NCBI GenBank assembly: GCA_021851875.1
Contig: JAJZQI010000008.1
Coordinates: forward strand, 48,359 to 112,358
Direction of reading: 5' to 3'
Source of the DNA: Pseudomonadota bacterium
Lineage (GTDB): Bacteria; Pseudomonadota; Gammaproteobacteria; Burkholderiales; JAJZQI01
Length of the DNA: 64,000 nucleotides
Shown here: positions 1 to 62,739 of the stretch, in pieces
How positions within the stretch are numbered: the stretch's first letter is position 1
How the letters are laid out: every line of letters starts with the position of its first letter
Notes under the pieces: model-generated
Databases searched by the model: none
The model's input: the letters and a program-made list of their open reading frames with translations, nothing else
What the model was told of the DNA's origin: nothing
Made by a program: the position numbers and the translations under genes

Positions 1-2
1 TG

Positions 3-359
3 ATCGAGCCGGCGGAGCTGCTGGCGCTCAAGGTGCCGCAGCTGGGGCATGAAATTCGCGGCAGGGGCATCGAGTGGCGCCACCTGCCCATTGCCGACTA
101 TTCCGTGCCCAGCCGGGTATTTGAAGAAGAGTGGCTCACGCAAGGCCATGAGATCCGCGCGATGTTGCGCCAGGGGGACGATGTGCTGGTGCACTGCAAA
201 GGCGGGCTGGGCCGGGCGGGCATGATGGCCGCCCGGCTGCTGGTGGAGTTGGGTATGGAGCCGGAAGCGGCCATCCGTTCCGTGCGCCACGCGCGCAAGG
301 GCGCCATCGAAACGTCTGCCCAGCTGGCTCTGGTGCGGCGAACCGTAGCCATCGACTGA
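3..359 (+). CDS. Cys-based protein phosphatase (PTP/dual-specificity-like); 5' end lies outside the window
   Basis: The frame is open from base 3. The translation carries the HCxxGxxR P-loop (VHCKGGLGRAG). The stop at 357-359 is 10 nt before the next ORF. Confidence 0.7.
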   Translation: MEPAELLALKVPQLGHEIRGRGIEWRHLPIADYSVPSRVFEEEWLTQGHEIRAMLRQGDDVLVHCKGGLGRAGMMAARLLVELGMEPEAAIRSVRHARKGAIETSAQLALVRRTVAID

Positions 360-369
360 GCGGGACAGG

Positions 370-1080
370 GTGATGAGCACAGACAGGCCCATGATTGATA
401 CCGCCACCCTGCAACGGGTCGGCGGACAATTGGGCACCAACCTGGCGGGTGTTTTCCAGGACGACCGCGGCCAGCGCTATTACGTAAAAACACTGGAATC
501 CCCCGCACTTGCACGCAACGAGCTGATTGCCGCCCGGCTTTATCAACTGGCGGGCGCGCCGACATTGACCTATGTCGACACAAAAGCCCCCGACCAGGTT
601 GCTACAAAGTGGCTTGAACTCGATAAAAAACGGGTTGCGCATCTGAGCGAAAGCGAACGCAAACAGGCGCAACAATGGTTCGGTGTGCACGCCTGGACAG
701 CCAATTGGGACGCTGCCGGGTACGATGGCGACAACCAGGGTGTCGTCAACGGCAAAGTCCTGACTCTGGATCTTGGCGGGGCGCTGGCGTTCCGGGCGCA
801 CGGCGATCCCAAGGGCAAGGCCTTTGGCACTCGCGTGGACGAAATCGATGTCCTGCGAAAAGACGTTGATAATCCCCACGCGGGCAGGCTTTTTGCAGGT
901 ATGACATCAGACGACGTCAAACAAGCCATCATGAAGGTGGTGCATATCCCTGACGAACAGATTCGTCAGGTGATCACTGATAACGGCGGCAGTCCGGCGC
1001 TGGCCGAGAAAATGATCGCCCGTAAAGCCGATATGGCCAGCCGCCTGACGGAAGAATCGTCTGCTGTCATTCCCCGCTGA
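370..1080 (+). CDS. Hypothetical protein, possibly a minimal kinase-like fold
   Basis: 236-aa ORF (GTG 370 or ATG 373) tightly coupled to the phosphatase ORF. Motif order is YYVK ... NELIAARLY ... HAWTANWD..DGDNQGV ... LTLDLGGA, which resembles lysine / catalytic-loop / DxG kinase spacing. This is a pattern impression only. Confidence 0.45.
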   Translation: MMSTDRPMIDTATLQRVGGQLGTNLAGVFQDDRGQRYYVKTLESPALARNELIAARLYQLAGAPTLTYVDTKAPDQVATKWLELDKKRVAHLSESERKQAQQWFGVHAWTANWDAAGYDGDNQGVVNGKVLTLDLGGALAFRAHGDPKGKAFGTRVDEIDVLRKDVDNPHAGRLFAGMTSDDVKQAIMKVVHIPDEQIRQVITDNGGSPALAEKMIARKADMASRLTEESSAVIPR

Positions 1081-1249
1081 CCACATAAATCTGTTTTAGC
1101 TATCTTTTTGGTTCGCAATTTGCTTGTCTATTAAAAGGATCTTTCAAAACCTTTTTTATACGAGTTTCTTGTCGTGTTTACTTCAATACATCCGACAATG
1201 ACTGCGCATTCACTGGCTGCATCAGCCCGGTTGAGGCGCTGCGGCAGGC

Positions 1250-1813
1250 ATGACTGTCAATCCGGGGAGACAGTGCATGCATGACGCTTTCATGTCTGCG
1301 GAGAAAGAGGAATGGGTCATCTGGAATGGCTCATACGGCATCGTCACCATGGCGGCGATCGGCCGCATCGAGGTTGGCGCTGGTGGCAAAACAGCGTGGC
1401 TTGATGCGCCCTACGACAGCGTAGGCCCCTTCAGCCTGGATGAACTGGAGACCGAGGGACGCATCATTTTTGAGGCCTGCATCGTCATGTCGCGTCAGCG
1501 ATGGCAAGACGACCAGGTCGAATTACGACGGGAAACTTTGGAAAAACGCCGGGCGGCACAGGAACGCATGAACGAAGAATTCGAACACTTCTTCGGCGGC
1601 TACGGCGGCTATTACGAAGACCGCAAACCCTTCGATGAACTCCCGCATAGAGAAGCCCTGAACTTGCCGGTCGACGGTAAACTTGAGCCATCCCAGATCA
1701 AAGCCGCTTTTCGCCGGCTCGCCCAGAAAGTGCATCCCGACGTGGGCGGCAGCAGCGAACAATTCATTCGCATTACCGAAGCCCGCAACGCGCTGCTTGA
1801 GCATATCGCCTGA
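1250..1813 (+). CDS. J-domain (DnaJ-like) protein with an unassigned N-terminal region
   Basis: The C-terminal ~55 aa form a J domain with the HPD tripeptide (IKAAFRRLAQKVHPDVGGSSEQFIRITEARNALL). The start is uncertain because ATG codons occur at 1250, 1268 and 1292. Confidence 0.7.
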   Translation: MTVNPGRQCMHDAFMSAEKEEWVIWNGSYGIVTMAAIGRIEVGAGGKTAWLDAPYDSVGPFSLDELETEGRIIFEACIVMSRQRWQDDQVELRRETLEKRRAAQERMNEEFEHFFGGYGGYYEDRKPFDELPHREALNLPVDGKLEPSQIKAAFRRLAQKVHPDVGGSSEQFIRITEARNALLEHIA

Positions 1814-1843
1814 GCACTACCTGATATTCCCTTGAAACCAGGT

Positions 1844-2305
1844 TTAAACAGCCGCGCGAATGGTTTGCGCCAGCATCGCGAGTGCTTCATCGTTCGCTCT
1901 CTGGCAATCGTGCGAAGAGACATAACCCTCGTAGCGAGTGAAGTACTTGTCGTTACTTGAGTTGATTTTTTTGAAATCGCTCGTGTTGCCGGTGCCGTGC
2001 ATGGGAAAAAGTTTGGCGTGCGCATGGTCAACCCCATAACCTTCGAAGATCATGGCCGTGCGAGCGACGCCATCGAGTGCGCGATCAATCAGAAGACCGA
2101 CTTTCTTCGCGGCGATCACCAGTTCAGCCAGTACCGAATCCGGTAGCGCAAATGCGTAGCTCGGGTGGTGTTGCTTTGGAATCACAACGCTGAATCCCGC
2201 TGTGTTGGGGAAGATGGATAGAAACGCCATGTGGGATTCATCTTCCCAGATGACATGAGCAGGGGCTCTGCGCGCAACAATTCGGCAGAAAATGCAGTCT
2301 TCCAT
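1844..2305 (-). CDS. HIT-family (histidine triad) nucleotide hydrolase/transferase
   Basis: N-terminal CIFCRI plus the histidine triad region GVDHAHAKLFP. Confidence 0.85.
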   Translation of the reverse strand: MEDCIFCRIVARRAPAHVIWEDESHMAFLSIFPNTAGFSVVIPKQHHPSYAFALPDSVLAELVIAAKKVGLLIDRALDGVARTAMIFEGYGVDHAHAKLFPMHGTGNTSDFKKINSSNDKYFTRYEGYVSSHDCQRANDEALAMLAQTIRAAV

Positions 2306-2585
2306 GGTGTTCCCCGGTTTTCCGTTTGGACATCACTTGAGCCAGAGGAGCACCGCGCTTGGGATGATAAGCACAAGAGCCACTCCATTCAATGTCAGCC
2401 GAACCCGTTTTGACGCGGGTTCCGCCGCTAAGCATGATGACGAGCAAGCCGGACATATTGCACAATACCGGCCAATTGACCCTGCCGGTACGATACCAAA
2501 GAACACTGTGCAGGCTCATCGCCAATACGATAATCATTGCCGCCACGATGTAGACAATGCGTGAAAGCCATCTTTTTTCCTGCAT
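2238..2585 (-). CDS. Possible small two-TM membrane protein
   Basis: ATG at 2583-2585 is preceded by GAAGAGG. Two hydrophobic spans are present (IVYIVAAMIIVLAMSL, VLCNMSGLLVIMLSGG). The 3' 68 nt overlap the HIT gene and that tail looks non-protein-like. Confidence 0.3.
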   Translation of the reverse strand: MQEKRWLSRIVYIVAAMIIVLAMSLHSVLWYRTGRVNWPVLCNMSGLLVIMLSGGTRVKTGSADIEWSGSCAYHPKRGAPLAQVMSKRKTGEHHGRLHFLPNCCAQSPCSCHLGR

Positions 2586-2714
2586 TGCGACCTCTTCTTG
2601 CAAGTCAACCGCCCGTTTGCCGCATCCCCATTGAGAGGCCGGTTAGAGGGGGGAGCCTGTCAACCTCGCCTTTGGGGAAATACCCAAACAAAACGTCCCC
2701 TCCTGAGTTTAGAC

Positions 2715-3293
2715 TCAGCCGTCGCGAGCCAAGCGCGCGGCGGCAGGGACGATCGCTTGGTCAGCCGTTTCCCCCAGGCACCAATGCCAGGGCTCATAGA
2801 TGTAACCGAACTTGTTTCCTTGGGGAAACGACAGCCGAAAGCCGAATTCATGCGCATGGGCACTGAGCCAGGAAAAGGCCGGTGTGAGATCGAAATCCGC
2901 TTCGAGAGGCTGTTTGTCGCCTGTGGCGATATCAACCGCCCTGCCGGTATGATGCTCGCTGCATCCGGGCGGTGCAAGATACGTGAGGATGTCGCTGAGA
3001 AGCCGGCCGGCATTTAGTTTCTGCTGGATAAGTTCGACCTGTCGATCAACGCTGCGATAGGCGGAAACGATGTGGATTTCTATGCCGTCTCCATCGGCAG
3101 CGGATTTCATTGCGTGCCACGCATCTGCTGCAGTCGGAGTGAGATAGAACGCTCGACCGCTGGCAGTCGCTTCCACCATTTGCAGCTCTTCAGCTTCTGC
3201 AAACAACGGCAGATTCCGCTCGGCCACAAGTTGATCGGACATGCCAATCCTGCGCCACACATCGCGATACCGATCAACGAGTAACTTGTCCAT
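2715..3293 (-). CDS. VanY / M15B-type D-Ala-D-Ala carboxypeptidase-like zinc peptidase
   Basis: Motifs SAYRS..RQ, SEHHTGRAVD and EPWHW appear in the canonical order for M15 peptidases. Confidence 0.8.
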   Translation of the reverse strand: MDKLLVDRYRDVWRRIGMSDQLVAERNLPLFAEAEELQMVEATASGRAFYLTPTAADAWHAMKSAADGDGIEIHIVSAYRSVDRQVELIQQKLNAGRLLSDILTYLAPPGCSEHHTGRAVDIATGDKQPLEADFDLTPAFSWLSAHAHEFGFRLSFPQGNKFGYIYEPWHWCLGETADQAIVPAAARLARDG

Positions 3294-3637
3294 GCCGACT
3301 ATCTTAAAACAAAACGCCGCTTGTTTGAATTGGATGGTCCATTGGCTATATCAGCTGGGCTGCCAATTGCACCCTATCGTTCGAAGCGAGGAAACCGCGC
3401 CCAGGGTTCCTTCAAACCAAAAACAGGGATGCCCAGCATTAAATCTACATGGTAGTTTTGAAGCTTGGCCGCCAGTGAGCGATCATTCGACAACCTGAAA
3501 TAGATATTTTGCTGCGCTCCAACGATTTGGGGCAAAAGCATGATACTCCGTGCGGCTCATCATGGTGCGTCCTCCGACAGATGAACCCGATTCACACTGG
3601 CGCGGGATACCGATAAAGTGAACCGCCTGGTTCATCG

Positions 3638-3661
3638 TTCTGACCTTCCTTCTGACCTTCC
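3638..3661. repeat. Perfect tandem duplication of a 12-mer (TTCTGACCTTCC x2)
   Basis: Read directly at 3638-3649 and 3650-3661. Confidence 0.9.
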
Positions 3662-3841
3662 TTGTATGCAGGTTCAGGCTCACGCCCCACCCAAGTTACC
3701 GTACGGCTTGATTGAACGAAAAACAGGCTGCAGCACCTATCTGACCCACAGGCTGTTAGCCTTAAGCCTTATCGATGTCTTGCAGCCCGGCTTGCTCAAC
3801 GGCTTCATTGCAGTCCATCACGCAAACGCTGTCAATATACG

Positions 3842-3893
3842 AGGCCTTACATTTTACACAAACAAAACAGGGGTGGTGTAAAATGTAAGGCCT
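3842..3893. repeat. Perfect 18-bp inverted repeat with a 16-nt loop
   Basis: AGGCCTTACATTTTACAC (3842-3859) pairs with GTGTAAAATGTAAGGCCT (3876-3893). Confidence 0.9.
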
Positions 3894-3950
3894 GACCCCG
3901 ATTGTGTGTGCGTGACCCCGATTGTGCGATTGCGATTGTGCGATTGTGTG
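3893..3950. repeat. Direct repeats: TGACCCCGATTGTG x2 followed by reiterated CGATTG(TG) units
   Basis: TGACCCCGATTGTG occurs at 3893-3906 and 3913-3926. CGATTG(TG) copies occur at 3899, 3919, 3927, 3933 and 3941. The block runs straight into the truncated transposase frame. Confidence 0.8.
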
Positions 3951-3951
3951 T

Positions 3952-4230
3952 GACAATGGTCTGGTGTTCACGAGCCATAGCTATACGCGTCTAGTGCGCA
4001 GCTACGGCCTGCAACAAGAGTTCATTACGCCGCACTGCCCACAGCAAAACGGCATGGTAGAGCGAGTGATTCGAACCCTGAAGGAGCAATGTGTACACCG
4101 TCATCGCTTCGAAACCCAGCAACATGCGACCCGGATCATCGGTGACTGGATCCTATTCTACAACACCCAGCGCCCACACCAGGCTCTGGGCATGAAAACC
4201 CCCGCTGAAGCTTATGCTTTAGCGGCCTGA
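3952..4230 (+). pseudogene. 3' fragment of a DDE (rve / integrase-core) transposase; IS remnant
   Basis: The translation DNGLVFTSHSYTRLVRSYGLQQEFITPHCPQQNGMVERVIRTLKEQ...YNTQRPHQALGMKTPAEAY is the C-terminal third of an rve-type transposase. No upstream catalytic or HTH part is present in any frame. Confidence 0.8.
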
Positions 4231-4639
4231 CCTGCGCAGAAAATGCTAGGTCATTACAGTGATTTGGGCGGCACACGTCGGGAAAGAGAAGGACAGTGTC
4301 AGTGCTGCAAACAAGATAGCGGCAAACTATCTCATGAATGTCGAATCGCCTCGTGCATTATGTTTTGTAGCGACATTATGTAATAAAAAGGCTGTTGTGA
4401 GCCGTTTGAATGTGAACTGCATGCAGGCTTGCACAACATTGAGAAGCTGGCCCATCACGGGTATGGGCGGTAGCAAGAGGGCAATAAGGGGCATCACGCC
4501 CGTGATGCGGTCTACGGACCCAGTCAGTCGACTGTATTTCCTGAAGTGAGAATCACAAAACCATCTTGGGAGTGAAGCGGAATCGCCGCAGTGGGAAAAA
4601 CGTGGCCTGCGAAAAATCTAAAAAGGGGTTTTTATACAG

Positions 4640-4709
4640 CTTGAACGTTTGAATTCAGCGGACGGCAAAAGCGCAGCTTTTGACGGTCCGCTGGAATGAT
4701 TTGTTAGCT
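4640..4709 (-). repeat. attC site a (distal end of array)
   Basis: Read on the minus strand: AGCTAAC-AAATC-ATT(C)CAG ... CTGAAT-TCAAAC-GTTCAAG. The central loop is CAAAAGCTGCGCTTTTG. Confidence 0.75.
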
Positions 4710-5116
4710 TACTCATCCTTGCGCATGGCCTCGGAAATTGGTGAGAAAAATGCAAGTGCAAGAATGGCACCGTCAGTTAAACCTGTGAGAGAACCCACTA
4801 GGTTGTCTAATGGGACAGTGATGGCCATACCGCTAAAGGGAACAGAGGCAACGCTTACTACAACAATGGCGAGTAGCAGCCAACGCCCCCAAGACAAGAA
4901 CAATAAAAGGCCAATAGAAGAGACAACTTTCCCAAGCCCAATGGATAGGTAAAAGAAGGGGTGTTGTGTCCATGAATGGGAGCCATACCCGCCCCACGCC
5001 AGGAGGTTGGACACTTCCTTGGGGAATGCTCGTGGCGAATAGGGCAAAAAGAACCAAAGCAGGTAGGAAACCAGCGAGGCCAAAACGAGTAATTGGAATA
5101 TGCGAGTGCGCGCCAT
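4709..5116 (-). CDS. Cassette ORF: small polytopic membrane protein (about 4 TM), function unknown
   Basis: ATG at 5114-5116 lies 5 nt after the attC-b core site. The stop TAA lies inside AGCTAAC of attC-a. Hydrophobic helices include IFQLLVLASLVSYLLWFF and LLLAIVVVSVASVPF. The 298-aa track ORF is an upstream over-extension through attC sites. Confidence 0.6.
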   Translation of the reverse strand: MARTRIFQLLVLASLVSYLLWFFLPYSPRAFPKEVSNLLAWGGYGSHSWTQHPFFYLSIGLGKVVSSIGLLLFLSWGRWLLLAIVVVSVASVPFSGMAITVPLDNLVGSLTGLTDGAILALAFFSPISEAMRKDE

Positions 5117-5121
5117 GTGAA

Positions 5122-5185
5122 AGCTAACGTTTAAGCTCAGGCGCGGCGCGCTTTTGCGCCGTCGCGCTGGAGCGCAGGGTTGGGC
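5122..5185 (-). repeat. attC site b
   Basis: Read on the minus strand: GCCCAAC-CCTGC-GCT(C)CAG ... CTGAGC-TTAAAC-GTTAGCT. Confidence 0.8.
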
Positions 5186-5208
5186 GTGAAGACAATCGGA
5201 GAGAGAGC

Positions 5209-5457
5209 ATGAAACTTGAACAAGTTGAGGTAAATAAAGAACAACTGAAGCTGGCAGAAGAAGCGCTACGGCGAGCAGGCGCTGAATTAAAAACTGCATG
5301 GACACTGCTGAAGCACAATGGGATGGAGCCGACGGCAAAAGAACTGGCAGACACTGTGCTTGATGTGGAAATTTCAGCGGATCAACTGCGCGAATTTTTG
5401 ACGCCCAACGTTCAAGGTAACCGGCCTGCCGCGCTTTTTGCGGCAGGTCCGGGTTGA
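5209..5457 (+). CDS. Inverted cassette ORF: 82-aa helical, charged protein, function unknown
   Basis: GGAGAG sits 5 nt upstream of the ATG. The composition is protein-like (MKLEQVEVNKEQLKLAEEALRRAGAELK...). The 3' end runs into attC-c. Confidence 0.45.
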   Translation: MKLEQVEVNKEQLKLAEEALRRAGAELKTAWTLLKHNGMEPTAKELADTVLDVEISADQLREFLTPNVQGNRPAALFAAGPG

Positions 5458-5471
5458 CCGCAGGGTTGGGC
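5403..5471 (-). repeat. attC site c
   Basis: Read on the minus strand: GCCCAAC-CCTGC-GGT(C)AACC ... GGTTACC-TTGAAC-GTTGGGC. Confidence 0.8.
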
Positions 5472-5477
5472 GTCGCG

Positions 5478-5882
5478 CTACCGAGAGAGGGCATACCGTA
5501 GGCCATAGCCACCAAGAGTGGGTACGAACACGAAGGCCGCTTTTGAGTACCAACGCGCATACCACATGGGCTCGTCGCCAAGCGAAAACCCGAATTGGAT
5601 TTCACCGGTTGCTTGAGCGGACCAGTAATCGAGTGCAGGGAAGAAAGCCCAGACTAGACCACCTATCAGAGCTGGAATTACTTGACCAAGGGACAACACG
5701 TCAAATTTCAGCAGCGCGATACAGACGGCAAGTACTCCTCCAACTCGAAGGAGAACAGAGAGGCTGGTTTCAAAATTGACGTTGATTGCGCCGGAAAACT
5801 TCCAGACTCCGAGAGCCAGCAGGCCGACGACAACTACTGCGATTACGACAAAAGCGTTTTCATCATTTGAACTGTTGCTCAC
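5478..5882 (-). CDS. Cassette ORF: small polytopic membrane protein, function unknown
   Basis: GTG at 5880-5882 is preceded by AAGGAGG with a 7-nt spacer. Hydrophobic spans include FVVIAVVVVGLLALGVW and VGGVLAVCIALL. The TTG start in the track lies inside attC-d. Confidence 0.6.
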   Translation of the reverse strand: MSNSSNDENAFVVIAVVVVGLLALGVWKFSGAINVNFETSLSVLLRVGGVLAVCIALLKFDVLSLGQVIPALIGGLVWAFFPALDYWSAQATGEIQFGFSLGDEPMWYARWYSKAAFVFVPTLGGYGLRYALSR

Positions 5883-5909
5883 TGCAATGCCTCCTTGGAG
5901 AAATGAGAT

Positions 5910-5982
5910 GCCCAACGTCAAAGCTCAGGGGCAGGACAAAAGCGCAGCTTTTGGCCTGTCCCTCTGGAGCGCCGTGTTGGGC
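5910..5982 (-). repeat. attC site d
   Basis: Read on the minus strand: GCCCAAC-ACGGC-GCT(C)CAG ... CTGAGC-TTTGAC-GTTGGGC. The loop is identical to that of site a. Confidence 0.8.
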
Positions 5983-6007
5983 GACATTGACTCACCATGT
6001 ACGCAGC

Positions 6008-6262
6008 TTATTTGATTACAGCTAACCAAGCCGCAACTGCACTTACAAGTGAGGCAACAGCAGAAAATACGGCCACCAGCCAAAGACGGTGCTCACGCAG
6101 GTGCCGTTCAGCTTCCAGTACCCGGCGTTGTAATTCATAGTCATCAGCAATTATCGGCACGTTCCCACGGCCTGGAACGACTACCGACTGGTCTGTTTCC
6201 ATGATGACACCCAATTGCTCAGCTCTTTTTCGTAGCGCATCGCCGACGAGAAGTTTTTTCAT
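6008..6262 (-). CDS. Cassette ORF: 84-aa tail-anchored (C-terminal TM) protein
   Basis: The start is 2 nt after the stop of the M48 gene. A single C-terminal TM segment is present (LWLVAVFSAVASLVSAVAAWLAVI). Confidence 0.55.
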   Translation of the reverse strand: MKKLLVGDALRKRAEQLGVIMETDQSVVVPGRGNVPIIADDYELQRRVLEAERHLREHRLWLVAVFSAVASLVSAVAAWLAVIK

Positions 6263-6264
6263 CT

Positions 6265-7500
6265 CTATTCACCAATCAATTGAACATAGACCGGGCGAAT
6301 GGAAACTGAGCTGTACCGAATTTGCTTCAACGGAATGCCGAATTCCTTCTGTTCGTAGGGCTGCATGGGAGACCATGGAATTTCATCTCTCATCAGGACC
6401 ATCTGACCATTCAGATATTCCAGGGCGACAATAGCATGCGAGATTTGCTTCCCGGAGGTGTTGACCGCAACACCGAATAAACCCCGCCCCCCACCGCTTG
6501 CGTTTGCAACCTGCAACCTTAAAAATTGGAGTCTTTGCGCAGCAAGGCGTTGCTGTTCCAGTTGTTTCGTTTGGCGCTTAAGCTGTTCCGTCTTGGCTTC
6601 CGTTGCCTCTACATAGGAATTTGCAACTGTTTCGAGCAGGGCCGCAAATCCGCCTCCTTCGCCAGCCTTGGCCGTTGAAGGTTTGCTGTACGAATAAAGG
6701 GCATTGTTCGTCAGAAGCTTTTCGTGCTCCGGGTTGATTTCGCCGGGAACAAGATATTGCTGTACCGCAGAAGCGTATTTCACCATGTTCTTGGCGCGAT
6801 CATCGTTGAGCGGGTGATCGAACATCATGTCGCCTGTATAGCTCCCCATCGCTTGGTGCATGCGGTTCCATACCCGGACACCCACTGAGGGGTCGTAACC
6901 CGCTAAAGCCAAATAAAGGGTGGAGTACTTGTCCGCTTCGGCTTCTTGGTTCGTGGTAAAGCTGGCGTCAAAGCCTTTTTCCTTTCTCAGCCCTTTGTCG
7001 GCGAGCTTGGCAATCGCCAACTTGCCTCCCTTCTCGCTAGCGTGGCGAGCGGACACATGGGCCATTTCATGAGCGAGAACAGCAGCCAGTTCGCTGTCAT
7101 CTCTGAGGCCAACTTCGCCCTGAAAAATTCCGGAGAAAACAAACATTTTTCCTCCCCCAATTGTGAAAGCGTTCCATTCTGGAGAATCCAAAACGTGGAC
7201 TTCCCAGGGTAGTTGCTTTCTATGCGTCACTGTTTTCAGGCGATTGAATACACGATTGACCCTCTCGTAGTAAGGCGTTTCTCCGTCAATTTTTATCCCT
7301 TTTTGCTTTGCTTGGGACAATATCTGTCGCTGCGCTTCTTCCGCTTGGCGGATTTCTTGCTCCTCAGAGACGAGATTAATCTGACGCTGGCCGGTTACAG
7401 GGTCACGCGACGAGACGCCATCACTGACTGCCATCATGCCTTTATCGATTGAGGCGCATCCTGTGAGCGCGACGACCAGAACAACAGAAAATAGCCGCAT
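6265..7500 (-). CDS. Cassette ORF: M48-family zinc metallopeptidase lipoprotein with an extra coiled-coil and beta-rich C-terminal region
   Basis: Lipobox LVVALTGC after MRLFSVV, HEMAH zinc motif, and downstream NQEAEADKYS...AGYDP. RBS GGAAAGGTGG lies before the ATG at 7498-7500. Confidence 0.8.
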   Translation of the reverse strand: MRLFSVVLVVALTGCASIDKGMMAVSDGVSSRDPVTGQRQINLVSEEQEIRQAEEAQRQILSQAKQKGIKIDGETPYYERVNRVFNRLKTVTHRKQLPWEVHVLDSPEWNAFTIGGGKMFVFSGIFQGEVGLRDDSELAAVLAHEMAHVSARHASEKGGKLAIAKLADKGLRKEKGFDASFTTNQEAEADKYSTLYLALAGYDPSVGVRVWNRMHQAMGSYTGDMMFDHPLNDDRAKNMVKYASAVQQYLVPGEINPEHEKLLTNNALYSYSKPSTAKAGEGGGFAALLETVANSYVEATEAKTEQLKRQTKQLEQQRLAAQRLQFLRLQVANASGGGRGLFGVAVNTSGKQISHAIVALEYLNGQMVLMRDEIPWSPMQPYEQKEFGIPLKQIRYSSVSIRPVYVQLIGE

Positions 7501-7565
7501 GTCGAACCACCTTTCCTTACGTGTCCTGCCCTCAAATATTGCTTGCATAGAACGCCTCTCTTGTC

Positions 7566-7631
7566 GCCCAACGTTTGAATTAACCGGCTGGCGCGCTTTT
7601 GCGCCAGTCCGGGTTGAATGATGGGTTGGGC
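7566..7631 (-). repeat. attC site e
   Basis: Read on the minus strand: GCCCAAC-CCATC-ATT(C)AACC ... GGTTAAT-TCAAAC-GTTGGGC. Confidence 0.8.
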
Positions 7632-7639
7632 ATAGCCGA

Positions 7640-8575
7640 CTACTCCATAAGCTGCAAAATGCCGAGAGCCTTTCCTGTTAACTCCCTTGTTGAGTTTGGC
7701 GTGATGTTGGAAACCCCAAGGCTTGCAAGGTCAGCCTTCACATCTTTCCAGAGGTAGTAGGTATCGTCAGAAGAGACTTCAAGGTAAAACCGTGTCCATT
7801 TGTCTTGGTCTTGGCGGTGGAGGATGGGAGCAGCTTGATATACATGAACGTATTTTCTGGTACCGCGTTTCTCAGTATATGCCTCGACAACCAAGTCACC
7901 CGGTTTTGCTTCTGATCGGAAGCGGGACTTGCCAGACCAACGAATTGAACGTACCTCATAGCCATCTTTTTCGACGTGCTTTTCTGCTTCCTCAAGCCCT
8001 TGTAGCTCGAATGACTCCTCGGCACTGGTGATTCGTTCGCTAAGCTGGCGCGTTGAAATAAACCACACGCGCGATTCACCAACAGTTATTTTCTTCTTGC
8101 TTTGGCGGCTAAAGCCGGAGGCGCGGACAACTGGCAGTGCTTCTATTCGCTGAAGAAACTCCTCAGTAACTTGGATGGACTCGCTCTTGACGTTCTCGAT
8201 GAATCCTTGAACCAAGCCCGCAATTTGAGAGTCGTCTGTGAATAATGAAGCTTCGCAGGTGCCGACACCTGCATTTTCTGAAAGATTCGCAGATCCAATT
8301 AACGAGTGGTTGTCGATGACGGCCACTTTAGAGTGCAATCCATCGAAGGAATAGAGTTCGGCTCCTTGATCGAAGAATGCTCGCAGAACTGAGGCCGATG
8401 TTAAGCCGCCTTTGATTGCATCATCGGATGCGTCACAGATAAGTAAATCGCCTTGGCGGAAATCAAGGTGTCGCGCTGTCACATAAGAAATGGCGGCGCG
8501 TATGCGTTTGTGGTTTGCCGATTGCTGAGACAACTCAGCCCACAGGTCATCACTCAGGAGCGTTTTCATAGTCAT
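7640..8575 (-). CDS. Cassette ORF: single-HKD phospholipase-D-family (Nuc/BfiI-like) nuclease with an unassigned ~150-aa C-terminal domain
   Basis: The HxK(x4)D(x6)GSxN motif reads LHSKVAVIDNHSLIGSANLSEN. The ORF fills the whole cassette between attC-f and attC-e. The start is ATG 8575 or 8569; the track's TTG start lies inside attC-f. Confidence 0.75.
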   Translation of the reverse strand: MTMKTLLSDDLWAELSQQSANHKRIRAAISYVTARHLDFRQGDLLICDASDDAIKGGLTSASVLRAFFDQGAELYSFDGLHSKVAVIDNHSLIGSANLSENAGVGTCEASLFTDDSQIAGLVQGFIENVKSESIQVTEEFLQRIEALPVVRASGFSRQSKKKITVGESRVWFISTRQLSERITSAEESFELQGLEEAEKHVEKDGYEVRSIRWSGKSRFRSEAKPGDLVVEAYTEKRGTRKYVHVYQAAPILHRQDQDKWTRFYLEVSSDDTYYLWKDVKADLASLGVSNITPNSTRELTGKALGILQLME

Positions 8576-8581
8576 AGAAAT

Positions 8582-8647
8582 GCCCAACGTGGAGTTGAGC
8601 GAGCGGAGCGCCGCAGGCGCGGAGTCCGCTCGAACGGAGGGTTAGAT
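8582..8647 (-). repeat. attC site f
   Basis: Read on the minus strand: ATCTAAC-CCTCC-GTT(C)GAGC ... GCTCAA-CTCCAC-GTTGGGC. Confidence 0.8.
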
Positions 8648-8942
8648 GCTGCACATTTACACAGCGAAGTTTCAATCGGCAACGGATTACCTTGACCAGT
8701 GCGGTGAGGTTGAATTCCGTGGCGGGTTTGAGCCGGAGAAGCTGATTTACGCCGACTGCTGCGGGAAACAACGGCCAGCAAAAGACTGTGTTGTGCAGTG
8801 CTACTACGATGGCCAGAGCATCTGGTGCGCACCTGAAAAGGGCTGCAAAGACCCGCAAGTGATTGCGGCGAAGAAGGCACGAGAGTTTGCGAATCGGAGT
8901 GCAGGACAAAAGGCTCGATGGGCGAAGGCATCTAACGTTTAG
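8646..8942 (+). CDS. Inverted cassette ORF: 98-aa protein with seven cysteines and a basic tail
   Basis: GGAGG (8636-8640, inside attC-f) sits 5 nt before the ATG. The seven Cys fall in CG..ADCCG..DCVVQC..WC..GC, followed by the tail KKAREFANRSAGQKARWAK. The stop lies inside attC-g. Confidence 0.5.
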   Translation: MLHIYTAKFQSATDYLDQCGEVEFRGGFEPEKLIYADCCGKQRPAKDCVVQCYYDGQSIWCAPEKGCKDPQVIAAKKAREFANRSAGQKARWAKASNV

Positions 8943-8993
8943 CTTAAGGGGCGCGCGGCTTTTCGCGCGTCCCGCTTGAAGCGCCTGTTAGGC
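8930..8993 (-). repeat. attC site g
   Basis: Read on the minus strand: GCCTAAC-AGGCG-CTT(C)AAGC ... CTTAAG-CTAAAC-GTTAGAT. Confidence 0.8.
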
Positions 8994-9008
8994 GCTATTG
9001 GAGGAAAG

Positions 9009-9200
9009 ATGAAACCGAAAGACATTATGTTTTCCGTGAACGAATACGACCGCGATGGTGATTGCACCGACAAGGGTGTATTCCTCCATTTCGGAGAAAC
9101 GAAGGTAAAGGCTGCGGACGGCATCAAGGAATTTGCCGAGATCGTGCGCCACTTCGAGGCGATGGTGGAAGAAATTGAAACCAACTATGCGGACGCCTAA
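9009..9200 (+). CDS. Inverted cassette ORF: 63-aa acidic protein, function unknown
   Basis: GGAGG at 9000-9004 sits 4 nt before the ATG. The stop TAA lies inside GCCTAAC of site h. Confidence 0.45.
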   Translation: MKPKDIMFSVNEYDRDGDCTDKGVFLHFGETKVKAADGIKEFAEIVRHFEAMVEEIETNYADA

Positions 9201-9254
9201 CGTAAATTAGGCGGCGTTGGAAAAGTGGTGTCACGCCGCCTAAATCTATTTATT
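9195..9254 (-). repeat. Degenerate attC-like site h (proximal boundary of array)
   Basis: The L'-spacer-R' half is intact (CGCCGCCTA-ATTTAC-GTTAGGC) and there is a 9-bp stem TAGGCGGCG/CGCCGCCTA. There is no extra base in L'', and the R'' position reads AATAAAT instead of RYYYAAC. Confidence 0.4.
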
Positions 9255-9368
9255 AAATTTATATCCATTAAATAACAATAACTTAATAATCGCATTTGCT
9301 TTTAACCCAACCTAAAAAAATGCGGATGAAAGTTCATGTTCTACATAAACATCCTTGCCCTTCCTGCC

Positions 9369-9397
9369 ATGATATGCGGACATTTGGATTATGACAA
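9369..9397 (-). promoter_or_regulatory. Candidate sigma70 promoter facing the cassette array
   Basis: Minus strand reads TTGTCA, a 17-nt spacer, then TATCAT, within the AT-rich gltX-array spacer. Confidence 0.3.
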
Positions 9398-9574
9398 ATG
9401 ATTGGATTTATCACTTATTTTCACTTCAACAAGAGCGTGCCAAAAGACAAAACAGAGCCCGTGGCCTTAGGGTTCTGGTCGCGAAGGGATAAAACGGACT
9501 AACAGGAATGGCGCAAAGCCGAGATACCGCATTAAACGGTATCTTGATGGCTTGCTTTGTGCCCTAACCGAAGG

Positions 9575-10969
9575 TTAGGAAGCGGACAGGGCGTTGAGCT
9601 GGCGGCGCAGGCGGGTCAGCACTTCATCTTTGCCGATGAGTGCCAGAACGGCATCGATGGAGGGGGTTTGCGGTTCGCCGGTGACCAGCACGCGCAGGGG
9701 CATGGCCACCTTGGGCAGTTTCAGGCCGTGTTCCGCGACGATGGCTTTCATCACGTCGTGAATGGCTTCGCGGGTCCAGTCGATGGCTTCAAAGCGGTCG
9801 GCCACTTGTTGCATCACCGGCAGAATGTCTGCACCGACGTGCTGTTCGATGACGGCGGGTTCGGCATCCAGCGGTCGATAGAAATACACGGCCGCATCGG
9901 CCAGTTCTTCAATGGTGTTGACGCGTTCTTTCAGCAGGTCGATGACCAGCGGCAGGGCCGGGCCATGGCTCGGGTCGCATTCGTCGCGCAGCAGAAAGGG
10001 GCGGACCAGTTCCGACAAACGGTTGCTGTCGGCCTGCTTCAGGTATTGCTGGTTGATCCAGTTGAGCTTTTCCGGGTTGAAGCGGGACGGAGAGCGGGAG
10101 ATGCCTTCCAGATTGAACCATTCGGTAAACTGGTCCATGGTAAACACTTCTTCGTCGCCTTTGGCCCAGCCCAGGCGTGCCAGGTAGTTGAGCAGTGCCT
10201 CGGGCAGGTAGCCGTCTTCTTCATACTGCATCACGCTGACCGCGCCGTGGCGCTTTGACAGCTTTTCCCCGTCGTGTCCCAGAATCATCGGTACGTGTCC
10301 GTACTTGGGCAAGGGGGCGCCGAGCGCCTTGAGGATGTTGATCTGGCGCGGTGTGTTGTTGACGTGGTCGTCGCCGCGAATCACGTGGGTGATTTGCATG
10401 TCCCAGTCGTCCACCACCACGCAGAAGTTGTAGGTAGGTGAACCGTCCGAGCGGGCAATGATCAGGTCGTCCAGCTCGCTGTTCTGCACAATGATCTGCC
10501 CTTTCACCAGGTCGTCGATGACAACGGCGCCGTCGAGCGGGTTCTTGAAGCGGACAACCGGTGACACGCCGGTCGGGGGCGTGGCGGTTGAGTCGCGCCA
10601 ACGACGGTCGTAGCGGGGTTTCTCGCCTTTGGCCATCTGCTCTTCGCGCATGGCATCGAGCTCTTCCTTGCTGGCGTAGCAGTAATAGGCTTTGCCTTCG
10701 GCCAGCAATTGGTCGATCACTTCCTTGTAGCGATCCATGCGCTTGGTCTGATAGAAAGGACCTTCGTCGTAGTCGAGCCCAAGCCACTTCATGGCATCGA
10801 GAATGACCTGGGTGTTTTCCGGGGTGGAGCGTTCCAGATCGGTGTCTTCAATACGCAGAACAAAGGTACCCTTGTGCCGGCGAGCGAATGCCCAGGAGAA
10901 CAGGGCAGTACGGGCGCCGCCCAAGTGCAGATAACCGGTGGGGCTGGGAGCGAAACGGGTGCGGACCAT
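9575..10969 (-). CDS. gltX: Glutamate--tRNA ligase
   Basis: N-terminal [18 protein letters not shown] (HIGH-type motif) and KLSKRHG (KMSKS-type motif). Confidence 0.95.
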
Positions 10970-11129
10970 GGCAGTGAGCTGAGTGAATCAAAGCCGCTAT
11001 TTTACGCAATAACTGGCAATGCCGCCATGTTGCAGCCGAGGTAAAGAGGGGGCCAGTGCTGGCAGAAGTGGTTCTAGGTGGGCTGGGAGCGATCTGCTAC
11101 CATGCGCCAGCTAGAGCGCTATATTGTTT

Positions 11130-12062
11130 ATGACAACACTGGTTAATACCGCCACACACCGGCAGGATGCATTCTGGGGAATTCTCTTTTCCCTGTTGGC
11201 CGCTATTGGTTTTTCCATCAAGTCCATTCTGGTCAAGCTGGCCTATGTATACGTGGTGGATGCAGTCACCTTGCTGACCCTGCGGATGGTCTTCTCCGTG
11301 CCGTTTTTTCTGATGATCGCCTTCTGGGCTGGGGCCCGCCAGCAGGAGCCGTTGCAAAAACGGAAGTGGCTGGTGATCGGTGCGCTCGGCTTGGGCTATT
11401 ACCTGTTCAATTATCTGGATTTTCTCGGCCTGCAGTATGTTTCCGCCGGGCTTGAGCGGCTGATCCAGTTTCTCTACCCGACTTTGACGGTGGTGCTGGC
11501 GGCCTTGCTTTATCGTCGGGCTATCTCCTCCAAGGTGATTGCCGCCATGCTGCTCAGTTACGCCGGTATCGCCATGGTGTTCATGCATGATGTGCGGGTC
11601 AGCGAGAGTGGAATTGTGCTGGGCGCGTCGCTGGTTTTTGCCAGTACGCTGTTCTACGCGATCTATCTGGTGGGGGCGGGGCACTCGATTGCACGCATGG
11701 GAACGGTGAGATTCACGGCTTATGCGATGCTGATCGCCAGCACCATCAGCGTGAGTCAGTTTGCCCTGACACACCCGCTGACAGCGCTGGTGCAACCCGC
11801 GCCGGTGTATCAGCTGGCCTTTATGATGGCGATCTTTTCCACCGTTTTGCCGGTATTCCTGTTAACGGCCGGTATCCGCCGGATCGGTTCCGGCGAGGCT
11901 TCTCTGATCGGCTCGATCGGCCCGGTGTTTACCATTTACCTGGCGCATGTGTTCCTTGATGAGCATGTTTCTGCCTTGCAAATCGGCGGGTCGCTTCTTG
12001 TATTGGTCGGTGTGGTTGCGGTCAGTCTGAGCAGCCGCAGCGATGTTCGGCCGATCAGCTGA
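11130..12062 (+). CDS. EamA/DMT-family transporter
   Basis: About ten hydrophobic helices in two EamA-like halves. I prefer ATG 11130 over the track's TTG 11124. Confidence 0.8.
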   Translation: MTTLVNTATHRQDAFWGILFSLLAAIGFSIKSILVKLAYVYVVDAVTLLTLRMVFSVPFFLMIAFWAGARQQEPLQKRKWLVIGALGLGYYLFNYLDFLGLQYVSAGLERLIQFLYPTLTVVLAALLYRRAISSKVIAAMLLSYAGIAMVFMHDVRVSESGIVLGASLVFASTLFYAIYLVGAGHSIARMGTVRFTAYAMLIASTISVSQFALTHPLTALVQPAPVYQLAFMMAIFSTVLPVFLLTAGIRRIGSGEASLIGSIGPVFTIYLAHVFLDEHVSALQIGGSLLVLVGVVAVSLSSRSDVRPIS

Positions 12063-53350: not shown

Positions 53351-59213
<5,863 letters not shown>

Positions 59214-60449: not shown

Positions 60450-62660
60450 TTGCTTGTCGCTGACGTGACCGAACACACTTCACTCCGCATCGCTCATATC
60501 GCCCTCGACGTGCCCTTGCCGGGGCCGTTCGACTACCTCATCCCGCCCGCCTTTGCCGGGCTGCAATTAGGCCAGCGGGTGGTCGTGCCCTTCGGGCGTC
60601 GGCGCATGGCCGGCATCGTTGTCGGGTTGGCAGACAAGAGCGCGTTCGCGCAAGATAAACTCAAACCGATCCAGGAAGTATTTTCCGCAGAATCTCCCCT
60701 GCCTGACGAGTTGCTGGCGCTGCTGCAGTTTGCCAGCCAGTACTATCATTACCCGCTGGGCGAAACGGTCATGCGGGCGCTGCCAGGTTTGCTGCGTGAT
60801 GCTGAGTCTTTGCCGGAGCAGAAATTGGGCTGGCTGGCGCTGACGGATGCAGGACGCGAGGCGCTGGCCAATTTACCCAAGCGGGCGGTGGTTAAGCAGA
60901 AGCTGTTTGCCATGCTCAGCCATGCACCTGTCTGTTCCTACGATGCTTTGCGCGAGCAGGGCAGCAGCGCGGCGGCACAGGTGCGCGAGTGGCTGCAAAA
61001 TGGCTTGCTGCTTGCGGCAGAGCCGCCTGCGACCGATTATGCCGCTTCTTCCATTCCCAAGCTGAACCACGAGCAAACTGCCGCCGTACACAGTGTTCTG
61101 GCCAGCCTGGGGCAATTCAAACCCTGGTTGCTGCATGGCGTAACCGGCAGCGGCAAGACCGAGGTCTACCTCAACATTGTGGCCGAGGTGCTGGAGCGCG
61201 GCGGGCAGGCGCTGGTGCTGGTGCCGGAAATCAACCTCACACCGCAACTGGAAGGGCGTTTCCGCAACCGTTTTCCCAATCATCGGCTGGTTACTCTACA
61301 CAGCAACCTGGCCGAGGGCGAGCGATTGCGCAACTGGCAGGCTGCCGTCAGCGACAAGGCCGATGTGGTACTGGGCACGCGCTTGTCCATTTTTACGCCA
61401 CTGCCGCGACTGGCTATCATCATCGTCGACGAGGAACATGACGCCTCTTTCAAGCAGCAGGAAGGTCTGCGCTACTCCGCCCGTGATATTGCCGCGGTAC
61501 GCGCACAGCGGCGTAACGTGCCCTTGCTGCTGGGCTCCGCCACCCCCTCGCTGGAATCCTGGTACAACGCCCAGAGCGGCAAGTACGGTCTGCTGCAACT
61601 GAATGAACGGGCAGTGAACAGCGCCACCCTGCCCACTATCCGACGGGTGGATACCCGTGTTAACGAAGCCAATGAAGGGCTGACCGAGCCGGTTGTCGAG
61701 GCGCTGAAGAAGGCCGTCGCACGGGGCGAACAGGCGTTGGTGTTCCTCAATCGGCGCGGCTACGCTCCGGTGCTGTACTGCGGCGGCTGCGGCTGGAAGG
61801 CCGAGTGCCATCGCTGTTCCGCCGCGTTGGTGTGGCATGCCCGCCACAAGCGCCTGCGTTGCCACCATTGCGGCCATGAAGAGCGCCCGCCCGTTGCCTG
61901 TCCCAAGTGCGGCAATATGGACCTGCGTCCCGTTGGCGAGGGTACCCAGCGTATTGAAGACGTGTTGCAAAGCAGGCTGCCGCAGGCGCGCATTCTGCGC
62001 GTCGATCGCGACAGCACTCGCACCAAGGGCAGCTTCGATGCCATGCTGGAGCAGATACACGGGCGGGAGATCGATATTCTGGTCGGCACGCAAATGCTGG
62101 CCAAGGGGCACGACTTTCCCCGCGTGTCACTGGTGGTGGTGCTCAATGCCGATGGCGCCTTGTATAGCACCGATTTTCGCGCCGGCGAGCGGTTGTTCGC
62201 CCTGCTCATGCAGGTGGCCGGCCGTGCCGGGCGGGCCGAGTTGGCGGGCGAAGTGTGGATTCAGACGCAGTTTCCGGATCATCCGCTGTACCGCGCGCTG
62301 CAGCAGCACGATTACAACGGTTATGCTGCGGAATTGCTGACCCAGCGCAAAAGCGCAGGTTTCCCGCCCTACGAATTTCAGGCCGTATTGCGTGCCGAGG
62401 CGCATCAGGTACATCAATTGGAGCAGTTCCTGCAACAGGCCGCTAAACTGGCGATACCAATATCGCATGAGGTACTGGTGTTCGACCCGGTGGAAAGCCT
62501 CATGCCGCGTGTTGCTAACCGGCATCGTTGGCAGTTGCTGATTCAGTCGGAGTCGCGTCAGGCCTTGCAGAAAATGCTGTTTCAGTGGGAGCCGCAGCTG
62601 TGGCGGATCGCTTCGCGCGAATTGCGCTGGAACATCGATGTGGACCCGCTGGAGGTATAG
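60450..62660 (+). CDS. priA: Primosomal replication restart helicase PriA
   Basis: Walker A GVTGSGKTEVY, DEEH box IIVDEEHD, and the Cys-rich Zn insertion CGGCGW..CHRC..CHHCG..CPKCG. The start is uncertain (TTG 60450 or GTG 60465). Confidence 0.93.
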   Translation: MLVADVTEHTSLRIAHIALDVPLPGPFDYLIPPAFAGLQLGQRVVVPFGRRRMAGIVVGLADKSAFAQDKLKPIQEVFSAESPLPDELLALLQFASQYYHYPLGETVMRALPGLLRDAESLPEQKLGWLALTDAGREALANLPKRAVVKQKLFAMLSHAPVCSYDALREQGSSAAAQVREWLQNGLLLAAEPPATDYAASSIPKLNHEQTAAVHSVLASLGQFKPWLLHGVTGSGKTEVYLNIVAEVLERGGQALVLVPEINLTPQLEGRFRNRFPNHRLVTLHSNLAEGERLRNWQAAVSDKADVVLGTRLSIFTPLPRLAIIIVDEEHDASFKQQEGLRYSARDIAAVRAQRRNVPLLLGSATPSLESWYNAQSGKYGLLQLNERAVNSATLPTIRRVDTRVNEANEGLTEPVVEALKKAVARGEQALVFLNRRGYAPVLYCGGCGWKAECHRCSAALVWHARHKRLRCHHCGHEERPPVACPKCGNMDLRPVGEGTQRIEDVLQSRLPQARILRVDRDSTRTKGSFDAMLEQIHGREIDILVGTQMLAKGHDFPRVSLVVVLNADGALYSTDFRAGERLFALLMQVAGRAGRAELAGEVWIQTQFPDHPLYRALQQHDYNGYAAELLTQRKSAGFPPYEFQAVLRAEAHQVHQLEQFLQQAAKLAIPISHEVLVFDPVESLMPRVANRHRWQLLIQSESRQALQKMLFQWEPQLWRIASRELRWNIDVDPLEV

Positions 62661-62739
62661 GATGGCCGTGGTGAAATTGGCGATTTCCCCCCGCTGGGTT
62701 AACATTAGCGGTTTAAAGAAACCGATCAAGGAATCAGTC

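Follow-up and report, generated by a model that had tools for sequence, protein, structure and literature searches.

Downstream of gltX, the gene for glutamyl-tRNA synthetase, in a 64,000-nucleotide stretch of the contig JAJZQI010000008.1 (assembly GCA_021851875.1; the whole of this stretch is hereafter called the window), lies a run of seven gene cassettes delimited by attC recombination sites, which we identify with high confidence as a chromosomal integron cassette array that does not encode its own integrase, known as a CALIN (cluster of attC sites lacking an integron integrase). Seven sites are clustered on one strand (two would be enough) with a largest gap of about 1.6 kb, and neither intI nor a recognisable pseudogene of it lies nearby; in the original study of CALINs, sites were clustered at 4 kb and pseudogenes were searched for over 10 kb (PMC4889954). 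The host is placed as an uncultured, sulfur-oxidising betaproteobacterium of the Sulfuricellaceae, its gltX being 84% identical to that of a Sulfurimicrobium metagenome-assembled genome (MAG). Orphan cassette arrays are well known, so the locus adds another instance and, as such, would hardly surprise a specialist.

The seven attC sites and their recombining strand

The sites, lettered from left to right in the window, are listed below in cassette order with their scores under two covariance models: R1, built from the seven window sites only, and R2, built from nine annotated sites of clinical class-1 integrons (aadA1, aadA2, aadB, aac(6')-Ib, blaOXA-4, blaVIM-2, dfrA12, gcuF and arr-3; 60–114 nt), delimited by annotation and box consensus. 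The strand given is the top strand, i.e., the direction of the cassettes; the folding, or bottom, strand is the + strand of the window, on which all model matches fall.

8930–8993, − strand: attC site g (cassette 1); R2 44.5 bits, R1 71.6 bits; bulged T, G and G on the 3' arm of the + strand hairpin
8582–8647, − strand: attC site f (cassette 2); R2 31.4 bits (E 2e-6), R1 40.6 bits; the site that diverges most; one of its arms has GAGC duplicated
7566–7631, − strand: attC site e (cassette 3, with the PLD-like gene); R2 42.3 bits, R1 78.3 bits
5910–5982, − strand: attC site d (cassette 4); R2 49.9 bits, R1 79.3 bits; DNA fold of −24.7 kcal/mol, z = −4.8
5403–5471, − strand: attC site c (cassette 5); R2 41.9 bits, R1 76.9 bits; hairpin fold
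5122–5185, − strand: attC site b (cassette 6); R2 43.6 bits, R1 72.1 bits
4640–4709, − strand: attC site a (cassette 7); R2 42.6 bits; R' box disrupted by the end of an insertion sequence (IS) that runs up to 4643 and leaves AAC at 4644–4646

An earlier reading, made from the sequence alone, had located seven palindromes of 64–73 bp at these coordinates, and both the positions and all of the 7-mers it quoted (including GCCTAAC at 9195) proved correct. All seven sites are 64–73 nt long, while attC sites in general range from about 57 to 141 nt. On the + strand, each opens with an xxxxAAC 7-mer followed by a G and closes with GTTxxxx, GCCCAAC and GTTGGGC being predominant. The AAC and GTT triplets are found in 7/7 sites, and the full GTTRRRY consensus closes all of them, while the full RYYYAAC consensus, which the sequence-only reading had attributed to every site, opens only five: the first box of site a is disrupted by the IS and that of site b is near-consensus. 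The 7-mers that flank each intervening segment are exact reverse complements in 7/7 intervals, as had been claimed, whereas the two ends of a single site agree at only 3–7 of 7 positions. Complementarity that holds per cassette and not per site is the mark of units that were once circular and were joined by crossover at G|TT.

Single-stranded DNA folding of the + strand gives a hairpin at every site (−17 to −25 kcal/mol; z −1.8 to −5.0 across the seven sites), and the outer boxes pair in the folds of sites c, d and e, the spacers staying open. These unpaired spacers are asymmetric (6 nt and 5 nt) and one arm carries an extra base, an architecture described in the sequence-only reading and visible both in the sequence and in the folds. 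In the minimum-energy folds of 6/7 sites, the bulged bases (T/G, G and G) occur only on the 3' arm of the + strand, site f having an unpaired GGAG stretch instead. The consensus fold comprises 14 pairs, half of which (7/14) show compensatory changes. Two loops are common to pairs of sites, CAAAAGCGCAGCTTTTG in a and d and GCGCGCTTTTGCGCC in b and e, again as reported, while pairwise identity among the seven sites averages about 55% (range 41–71%). Finally, a pattern derived from the family matched four of the sites, against 0.00 matches expected from 100 shuffles, and chance does not account for the sites.

The attC covariance-model check proposed along with the first reading was made with R2, whose source sites are independent of the window. 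On the 64 kb, this model recovers exactly the seven sites, all on + (31.4–49.9 bits; E roughly 1e-11 to 2e-6), the next best match reaching 11.8 bits and scores on the opposite strand not exceeding that same value. R1, run with filters off, likewise finds the seven sites and nothing else above 12 bits. Detection works in the other direction as well, since on clinical plasmids R1 falls exactly between annotated cassette genes, at the sites of aac(6')-Ib (42 bits), aadA2 (41.8), aadA1 (38.6) and blaOXA-4 (38.5), with lower scores for the blaVIM-2 and arr-3 sites. Moreover, a metagenome pattern scan matched at least 120 DNA stretches, and R1, run on 80 of these loci, found 198 sites in same-strand arrays. 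Where there is enough flanking sequence, these arrays adjoin integron integrases in the predicted position and divergent from the cassettes: IntI1 in one locus (L097; NF011946, 782 bits) and another integron integrase in a second (L102; TIGR02249, 330 bits). The former is an environmental class-1 integron (5360–11618), with an intI1 of 96% DNA identity to the clinical gene and an rve-type IS between intI1 and an array of at least seven attC sites.

Being GC-rich, imperfect and located between genes, the palindromes might be taken for ordinary intergenic repeats (REP/BIME-like) or transcription terminators that have nothing to do with recombination. We regard this as hardly credible. No copy exists outside the 4.4-kb array in the 64 kb, nor did R1 match in 80 gltX neighbourhoods of related species, which disposes of the generic-repeat view that had been named as the outcome that would sink the proposal; the palindromes have no T-runs, and a terminator scan takes none of them as a full hairpin. 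Neither view accounts for the match to a model of clinical attC sites or for box complementarity that holds per cassette. An Rfam scan of positions 1–12000 returned two sub-threshold chance matches only, and thus no known RNA family.

The bottom strand of an attC site is defined as the one that starts with 5'-RYYYAAC, ends with GTTRRRY-3' and carries extrahelical bases near L'' (PMC5027507). The + strand of the window is this recombining bottom strand, and the cassettes are read on the minus strand, as the sequence-only reading had deduced: the assignment follows both from the folding and from the orientation of the model matches relative to annotated genes in clinical integrons, in which matches on + accompany cassette genes on −, with intI1 to the right on +. 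Once single-stranded, the + strand would fold at each site into a hairpin in which the outer boxes pair 5'-RYYYAAC with GTTRRRY-3' (PMC5027507, PMC4889954). Two or three bulged bases near the inner box would then mark the strand for the integron integrase, which would cut between A and C of AAC (G|TT on the other strand); recombination between neighbouring sites would free a cassette circle, which could re-insert at attI, at another attC or at a secondary site. These steps are borrowed from established integron biology, the anatomy being what the locus displays directly, and the per-cassette complementarity of the 7-mers would be the footprint of such excision and insertion events. The GC skew is positive on the + strand across the whole window, and most genes from 11 kb onward lie on +; judging from this skew in a single 64-kb window, the bottom strands would lie on the lagging-strand template. 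This configuration reportedly makes folding and excision easier and is the reverse of the one conserved in large sedentary integrons (PMC13108822).

No tyrosine recombinase is encoded in the 64 kb, as first asserted: tblastn with three queries (IntI1, a second integron integrase and a phage-type integrase) returned nothing at E < 0.6 in the window, and the search was equally empty in three further contigs of the same organism (L206, L214 and L215). It covered 54 kb on the upstream side and 4.6 kb on the downstream side of the array, to which these contigs add about 8 kb downstream. No intI pseudogene was detectable by tblastn in the window, and Pfam revealed no integrase among its open reading frames (ORFs), all of which were scanned except 53351–57799, 62638–63120 and 63187–63927. 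A comparison with the integrase-proximal regions of L097 and L102 showed no attI-like similarity at the locus. The place held by intI in L097, L102 and the clinical integrons is occupied here by gltX, and the locus is therefore not a complete integron. Because it has neither intI nor attI, movement of the cassettes would require an integrase acting in trans, encoded elsewhere in the genome or on an incoming element.

Cassettes and flanking genes

Measured from crossover to crossover, the seven units are 265, 348, 1016, 1656, 507, 281 and 482 bp long (cassettes 1–7, numbered from the gltX side), and six of them carry one gene, the seventh carrying two.

8936–9200, − strand: cassette 1 (265 bp), boundaries from the 7-mers; its only plausible ORF, 9009–9200 (+), encodes 63 aa, has a GGAGGA ribosome-binding site and is reversed
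8588–8935, − strand: cassette 2 (348 bp); ORF 8646–8942 (+), 98 aa, Cys-rich, reversed
7572–8587, − strand: cassette 3 (1016 bp); ORF 7640–8575 (−), a 311-aa PLD-like (HKD motif) putative nuclease (Pfam PLDc_2, 9.5e-8)
5916–7571, − strand: cassette 4 (1656 bp); its first gene, 6265–7500 (−), encodes an M48 zinc metalloprotease with a lipoprotein signal (Pfam Peptidase_M48, 6e-20)
6008–6262, − strand: second gene of cassette 4, an 84-aa protein with a C-terminal membrane helix
5409–5915, − strand: cassette 5 (507 bp); ORF 5478–5882 (−), a 134-aa membrane protein with a GTG start after AAGGAGG
5128–5408, − strand: cassette 6 (281 bp); ORF 5209–5457 (+), 82 aa, reversed, extending into site c
4646–5127, − strand: cassette 7 (482 bp); ORF 4709–5116 (−), a 135-aa membrane protein

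The genes of cassettes 3, 4, 5 and 7 run forward, on the minus strand, while those of cassettes 1, 2 and 6 are reversed, each with a good ribosome-binding site. Those of cassettes 1, 5 and 6 are annotated in other assemblies, and that of cassette 7 in one assembly. The M48 protease shows a HEMAH motif and an LTGC lipobox in its translation and matches a PHROG of unknown function. The 134-aa membrane protein of cassette 5 has a marginal match to PHROG 4174 (3.5e-4; unknown function) as its sole family match, and the proteins of cassettes 1 (63 aa) and 6 (82 aa) have no match in Pfam, PADLOC or PHROGs. A defence role is not supported: PADLOC and PHROGs, run on all cassette proteins, gave no convincing system match, the PLD-like protein having weak DrmC-like PADLOC matches. 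No resistance gene was found in the cassettes.

Homologues of the PLD-like protein number 111, mainly on short environmental contigs, and those of the 98-aa protein of cassette 2 number 103; the latter form a real family, and in both of the other contexts that we inspected they are surrounded by phage-type early genes (DnaB, NinB, YbcO, RNA ligase and ERF; L228–L232), and cassette 2 may thus derive from a phage gene. Among the 80 metagenome arrays, no homologue of the window cassette proteins was found, save a distant M48 relative outside an array. A Nitrosomonas MAG (GCA_016791225.1; L223 7235–8245) carries a 74%-identical counterpart of the PLD-like gene as an isolated cassette, outside any array, with mgtE and an FMN reductase (FMN_red) gene as its neighbours; the gene is followed by a related attC, GCCCAAC-TCATC-ATTCCATCGGAC...TCAAAC-GTTATAC (R1 35 bits, R2 34 bits); no GTT is evident at its upstream junction. 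Because a homologous gene with a related attC stands alone in this second context, the PLD-like cassette, one of the seven, behaves as a mobile unit.

On its right, the array is bordered by core genes only, from gltX to priA according to Pfam, and gltX itself is transcribed into the array, on the strand of the cassettes.

9575–10969, − strand: gltX, glutamyl-tRNA synthetase (Pfam tRNA-synt_1c, 4.6e-109)

Beyond gltX come an EamA transporter and an AsnC regulator, then genes of amino-acid/polyamine metabolism, sdhAB-like genes, hemB, mrcA, pilMNOPQ, aroB, gltD, hemE and priA. The spacer at 9255–9574, between gltX and an upstream boundary element of the array discussed below, is AT-rich. No Pc promoter was found at the locus, and for this reason the forward cassettes would be expressed only through transcription entering from gltX or from the spacer, while the three reversed small genes would need promoters of their own. 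A promoter scan gave one candidate between gltX and the array, TTGTCA-17-TATCAT (9397->9369, −), which points into the cassettes; as the scan yielded fewer matches than shuffled sequence did, this candidate is not above chance. The left flank (1–3898) has a GC content of 52–57%, below that of the right side, and holds small genes (a DnaJ-domain protein, a HIT-family protein and a VanY peptidase) without attC sites, which makes it a possible further accessory region. Finally, a scan of the genome collection with gltX showed that synteny around this gene is not conserved even in the closest species, and thus provided no empty site for comparison.

Haplotypes and insertion sequences at site a

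Searches for identical proteins led to further assemblies of this organism, which together suggest three haplotypes. The contig L206 matches the window at 99.99% identity over 14.3 kb that begin at 4644 and run to the right, but it differs in its first 297 bp, and the difference starts at the AAC triplet of site a. There, L206 has an intact GGCTAAC box, which raises the R2 score of the site from 42.6 to 54.6 bits, and on the top strand the site is preceded by GTTAGCC, 13 nt and ATG, as at the start of a cassette; the 44-aa fragment encoded at the left end of this contig is without homologue. Polymorphism at a G|TT junction, which had been proposed as a check, is therefore observed, with a canonical GTTAGCC box on the differing side. 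Since the G|TT triplet of site a is precisely where these otherwise 99.99%-identical haplotypes diverge, exchange of cassettes might be ongoing.

Two other contigs, L214 and L215 (the latter from the MAG GCA_027356545.1), are 100% identical to the window over 1–3898 and then diverge, so that the left flank of the window ends at a breakpoint beyond which it holds fragments of insertion sequences.

3898–3899, no strand: haplotype breakpoint; other contigs of the organism match the window at 100% identity as far as 3898 and beyond it continue with half an attC and three cassettes instead of IS fragments
3922–4258, + strand: IS3-type transposase fragment, C-terminal 102 aa (Pfam rve_3, 9.4e-22)
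4433–4643, + strand: right-end fragment of an IS1182-type IS, with the last ~14 codons (ending in HNIEKLAHHGYGR and the stop codon) and the 3' end (ending in GGGGTTTTTATACAGCTTG), inserted at the AAC of site a

The breakpoint (3536/3537 in L214, 3898/3899 in the window) lies next to a hairpin with an 18-bp stem (3842–3859 / 3876–3893), and the junction in L214 cuts an attC in half. In the window, it meets a sequence rich in GATTGTG that contains TGACCCCGATTGTG twice (3893–3906 and 3913–3926). L214 continues with, in order, the half attC, a HigBA-like toxin–antitoxin cassette, an attC interrupted by an IS110-family element, a cassette for a 251-aa membrane protein, another attC, a SnoaL_2 cassette and, where the contig stops, the left end of an IS. 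These further attC sites have the same orientation as the window array. The toxin–antitoxin pair (L214 2877–3478; HigB/HigA-like, Gp49 + HTH_3) is the last cassette of this alternative haplotype, and such pairs are typical of chromosomal cassette arrays.

The IS end in L214, CAGGCTGTATAAAAACCCC, is the inverted counterpart of the window sequence that abuts site a (GGGGTTTTTATACAGCTTG, then AAC). The simplest reading is that there was probably one longer array of ten or more cassettes, that an IS inserted into the first box of site a and that the window haplotype lost the left part of this IS together with three cassettes. Alternatively, the left structure of the window, with its IS fragments joined at 3898, might be an assembly chimera, the real locus being the longer array of L214 and L206. 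In most assemblies the contig does end no more than a few hundred bases from 3898 or from site a, as is typical of repeats and mixed strains. Yet the overlap between this junction and the alternative is no longer than about 6 bp (TGACCC), too short to mislead an assembly at k=141 (a value taken from the 'k141' contig names), and an IS ending at site a makes biological sense as a junction and is found again in unrelated arrays. We consider a chimera improbable, and the seven sites would in any case be unaffected, since at least five independent contigs carry them in identical form.

The sequence-only reading had placed the array beside an IS remnant, and IS sequence is indeed present, but as two unrelated fragments, separated by 4259–4432, and not as one. 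The view of 3899–4643 as a single IS3-type element was tried and rejected, since its last 210 bp come from a different IS family. The assignment of 4433–4643 rests on an alignment with the sequences L088, L176 and L117 and on Pfam DDE_Tnp_1_6 in the L088 copy. This IS1182-type element also occurs in unrelated metagenome arrays, every instance at the AAC of a first attC box: L088 (61–830) holds an internally deleted copy with both ends, GCCTAAC abutting GACGCTGTAGAAAAAC on one side and GGGTTTTTCTACAGCTTC abutting AAC-GTTTGA on the other; L104 (5189–5340) and L109 (814–965) hold a miniature derivative of about 135 bp with AAC duplicated; L176 (about 1380–1560) holds a right end. In the same organism as the window, the left end mentioned above occupies L214 1–131. 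The terminal repeat, GGGTTTTTNTACAGC next to AAC, and the AAC duplication are complete in L088 and in L104/L109, and the transposase lies on the attC bottom strand in all three copies that retain transposase sequence (window, L088 and L176). Our literature search returned no paper linking IS1182-type elements with attC, the described cases being IS1111-attC elements and group IIC-attC introns. If the targeting is real, an IS sitting in the AAC/GTT triplet cut by the integrase would compete with cassette recombination or block it.

The IS110-family element of L214 (1395–2810; DEDD_Tnp_IS110 + Transposase_20, gene 1722–2744) interrupts an attC, with GCCCAAC-GAAGT before it and AACCGG... after it and GAAGT at either end, and is reminiscent of the IS1111-attC group.

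Taken together, these observations lead us to a tentative picture, for which we would claim rather less than an even chance, in which the orphan array may still be in use, its cassettes being exchanged through an integrase encoded elsewhere, and may have been colonised by an undescribed, triplet-targeting lineage of IS1182-type elements with miniature derivatives.

Origin of the array and comparison with known systems

Several points tell against the identification of the locus as an integron cassette array without an integrase, or narrow it. Recombination is read from signatures in the sequence, no event having been observed directly, and R2 is a small, home-made model with rough E-values. 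Site a opens with CTTGAAC and not with RYYYAAC; the cause is the insertion sequence that sits in that box, and the 99.99%-identical L206 has GGCTAAC at the same place. Three of the seven cassettes carry reversed genes, which seemed above the usual share. The polymorphism of L206 comes from one metagenome contig end of 297 bp, in which the left neighbour of site a is without a match, and the link between the cassettes of L214 and site a follows solely from matching IS ends. Finally, the description as integrase-less holds for the locus and not for the organism.

How such an array came to lie beside gltX depends in part on how its upstream end is read.

9195–9254, − strand: upstream boundary element; top strand AATAAAT-AGATT-TAGGCGGCG-loop-CGCCGCCTA-ATTTAC-GTTAGGC

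This element has the spacing of an attC- or attI-like 'simple site' and ends in the G|TT that opens cassette 1, its outer box being degenerate and its hairpin (−12.7 kcal/mol, z = −3.9) devoid of a bulge. Under both models it reaches only 8–11 bits, and it does not resemble the integrase-proximal region of either L097 or L102. By its architecture it could be an eighth attC or an attI, but its model scores do not bear this out, and it may be a decayed site or a mere hairpin.

Two origins can be envisaged. In the first, which we hold to be plausible while giving it slightly less than an even chance, the array is what remains of a complete chromosomal integron whose integrase–attI end was lost or moved at the gltX side, 9195–9254 being the decayed upstream site. 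The first cassette does start at a canonical G|TTAGGC preceded by a site-spaced hairpin with a degenerate outer box; at least three IS fragments or insertions, along with the alternative haplotypes, imply that rearrangement is active at the locus; and loss of intI and rearrangement are listed among the routes to CALINs (Cury et al., PMC4889954). Against this origin, no intI pseudogene is detectable in the window, the spacer (9201–9574) is unlike the integrase-proximal regions of L097 and L102, and around gltX related species show no synteny and no array, so that no ancestral integron can be demonstrated there. In the second, a possibility to which we give roughly one chance in three, the array grew in situ through the action of an integrase whose gene lies elsewhere: the first cassette entered a secondary site downstream of gltX, and later ones its attC. 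Integrases insert cassettes at many non-att genomic sites, where these are expressed if near host promoters (10.1101/2022.09.11.507474). The array also follows gltX and is co-directional with it, the homologous PLD-like cassette is a single insertion between core genes in Nitrosomonas, and near-identical haplotypes vary at the crossover triplet, which suggests recent integrase activity. Nevertheless, the sources consulted describe no array that grew stepwise to 7–10 cassettes at a secondary site, no integrase was located for the organism and no empty site is available for comparison. Both origins fit the data, and descent from a complete integron is slightly favoured by the site-like remnant at 9195–9254 and by the evident IS-driven decay.

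How CALINs arise and whether their cassettes are still exchanged is largely a matter of speculation (PMC4889954). The present locus offers a small, well-delimited natural case, in which an array is co-directional with an essential gene from which it could be expressed, haplotypes differ at the crossover triplet and several insertion sequences lie in the sites. It also adds uncharacterised cassettes, encoding a PLD-like nuclease, a lipoprotein M48 protease, small membrane proteins and a phage-associated Cys-rich protein. The part most worth further work is the targeting of the attC crossover triplet by an IS, and cassette-level polymorphism is worth pursuing as well.

Among known systems, the locus most closely fits the CALINs, of which 279 were found in complete genomes with an average of five sites, 83% having fewer than six (Cury et al. 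2016, IntegronFinder, PMC4889954). It shares with them same-strand attC sites, the absence of a nearby intI, a small array, cassettes of unknown function without resistance genes, insertion sequences in the vicinity and a betaproteobacterial host. Nothing essential sets it apart, its seven sites (probably ten or more in the other haplotype) being somewhat above the average.

With the attC sites of clinical class-1 integrons (aadA1/aadA2, aac(6')-Ib, blaOXA-4 and dfrA12), the window sites have in common the order of the boxes, the 6-nt/5-nt spacer asymmetry, mutual detection by covariance models, a bulged G in an inner box of the CTT-G-AAG type, a bottom strand starting with AAC-G and a length of 60–90 nt, and the loops of dfrA12 and blaOXA-4 resemble CAAAAGCGCAGCTTTTG. 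In contrast, the outer boxes of the window are mostly GCCCAAC/GTTGGGC, and there are no resistance genes, intI1, attI1 or 3' conserved segment.

Sedentary chromosomal integrons, such as the Vibrio cholerae superintegron, resemble the locus in being chromosomal, among core genes, in carrying cassettes of unknown function, some of them reversed with their own start signals, and in the toxin–antitoxin cassette of one haplotype here. Here, however, there is no integrase and there are far fewer cassettes, and the sites are about 55% identical instead of highly homogeneous. The sequence-only reading had likened the homogeneity of the loops to that of sedentary families; the shared loops are real, but at such an identity, and with similar loops in the clinical dfrA12 and blaOXA-4 sites, the likeness does not carry that far. 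Sedentary arrays are recognised by more than 19 attC sites or by presence in all genomes of a species, plus high similarity of the sites, and we count seven sites (ten or more inferred) of 55% identity, with none at gltX in related species. Moreover, according to the GC skew, the bottom strands appear here on the lagging-strand template, opposite to the conserved orientation (PMC13108822).

Insertions at attG sites (Loot et al., 10.1101/2022.09.11.507474) likewise concern cassettes placed outside attI, beside a host gene that could drive their expression, and the relative of cassette 3 in Nitrosomonas is just such a single insertion, whereas the locus is a multi-cassette array in which no empty target site defines the insertion point. 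Finally, elements that target attC (IS1111-attC and group IIC-attC introns) have counterparts here in the IS110-family element of L214 and the IS1182-type element at site a, both inside attC, the latter differing from these described cases in that it uses a DDE transposase and duplicates the AAC triplet.

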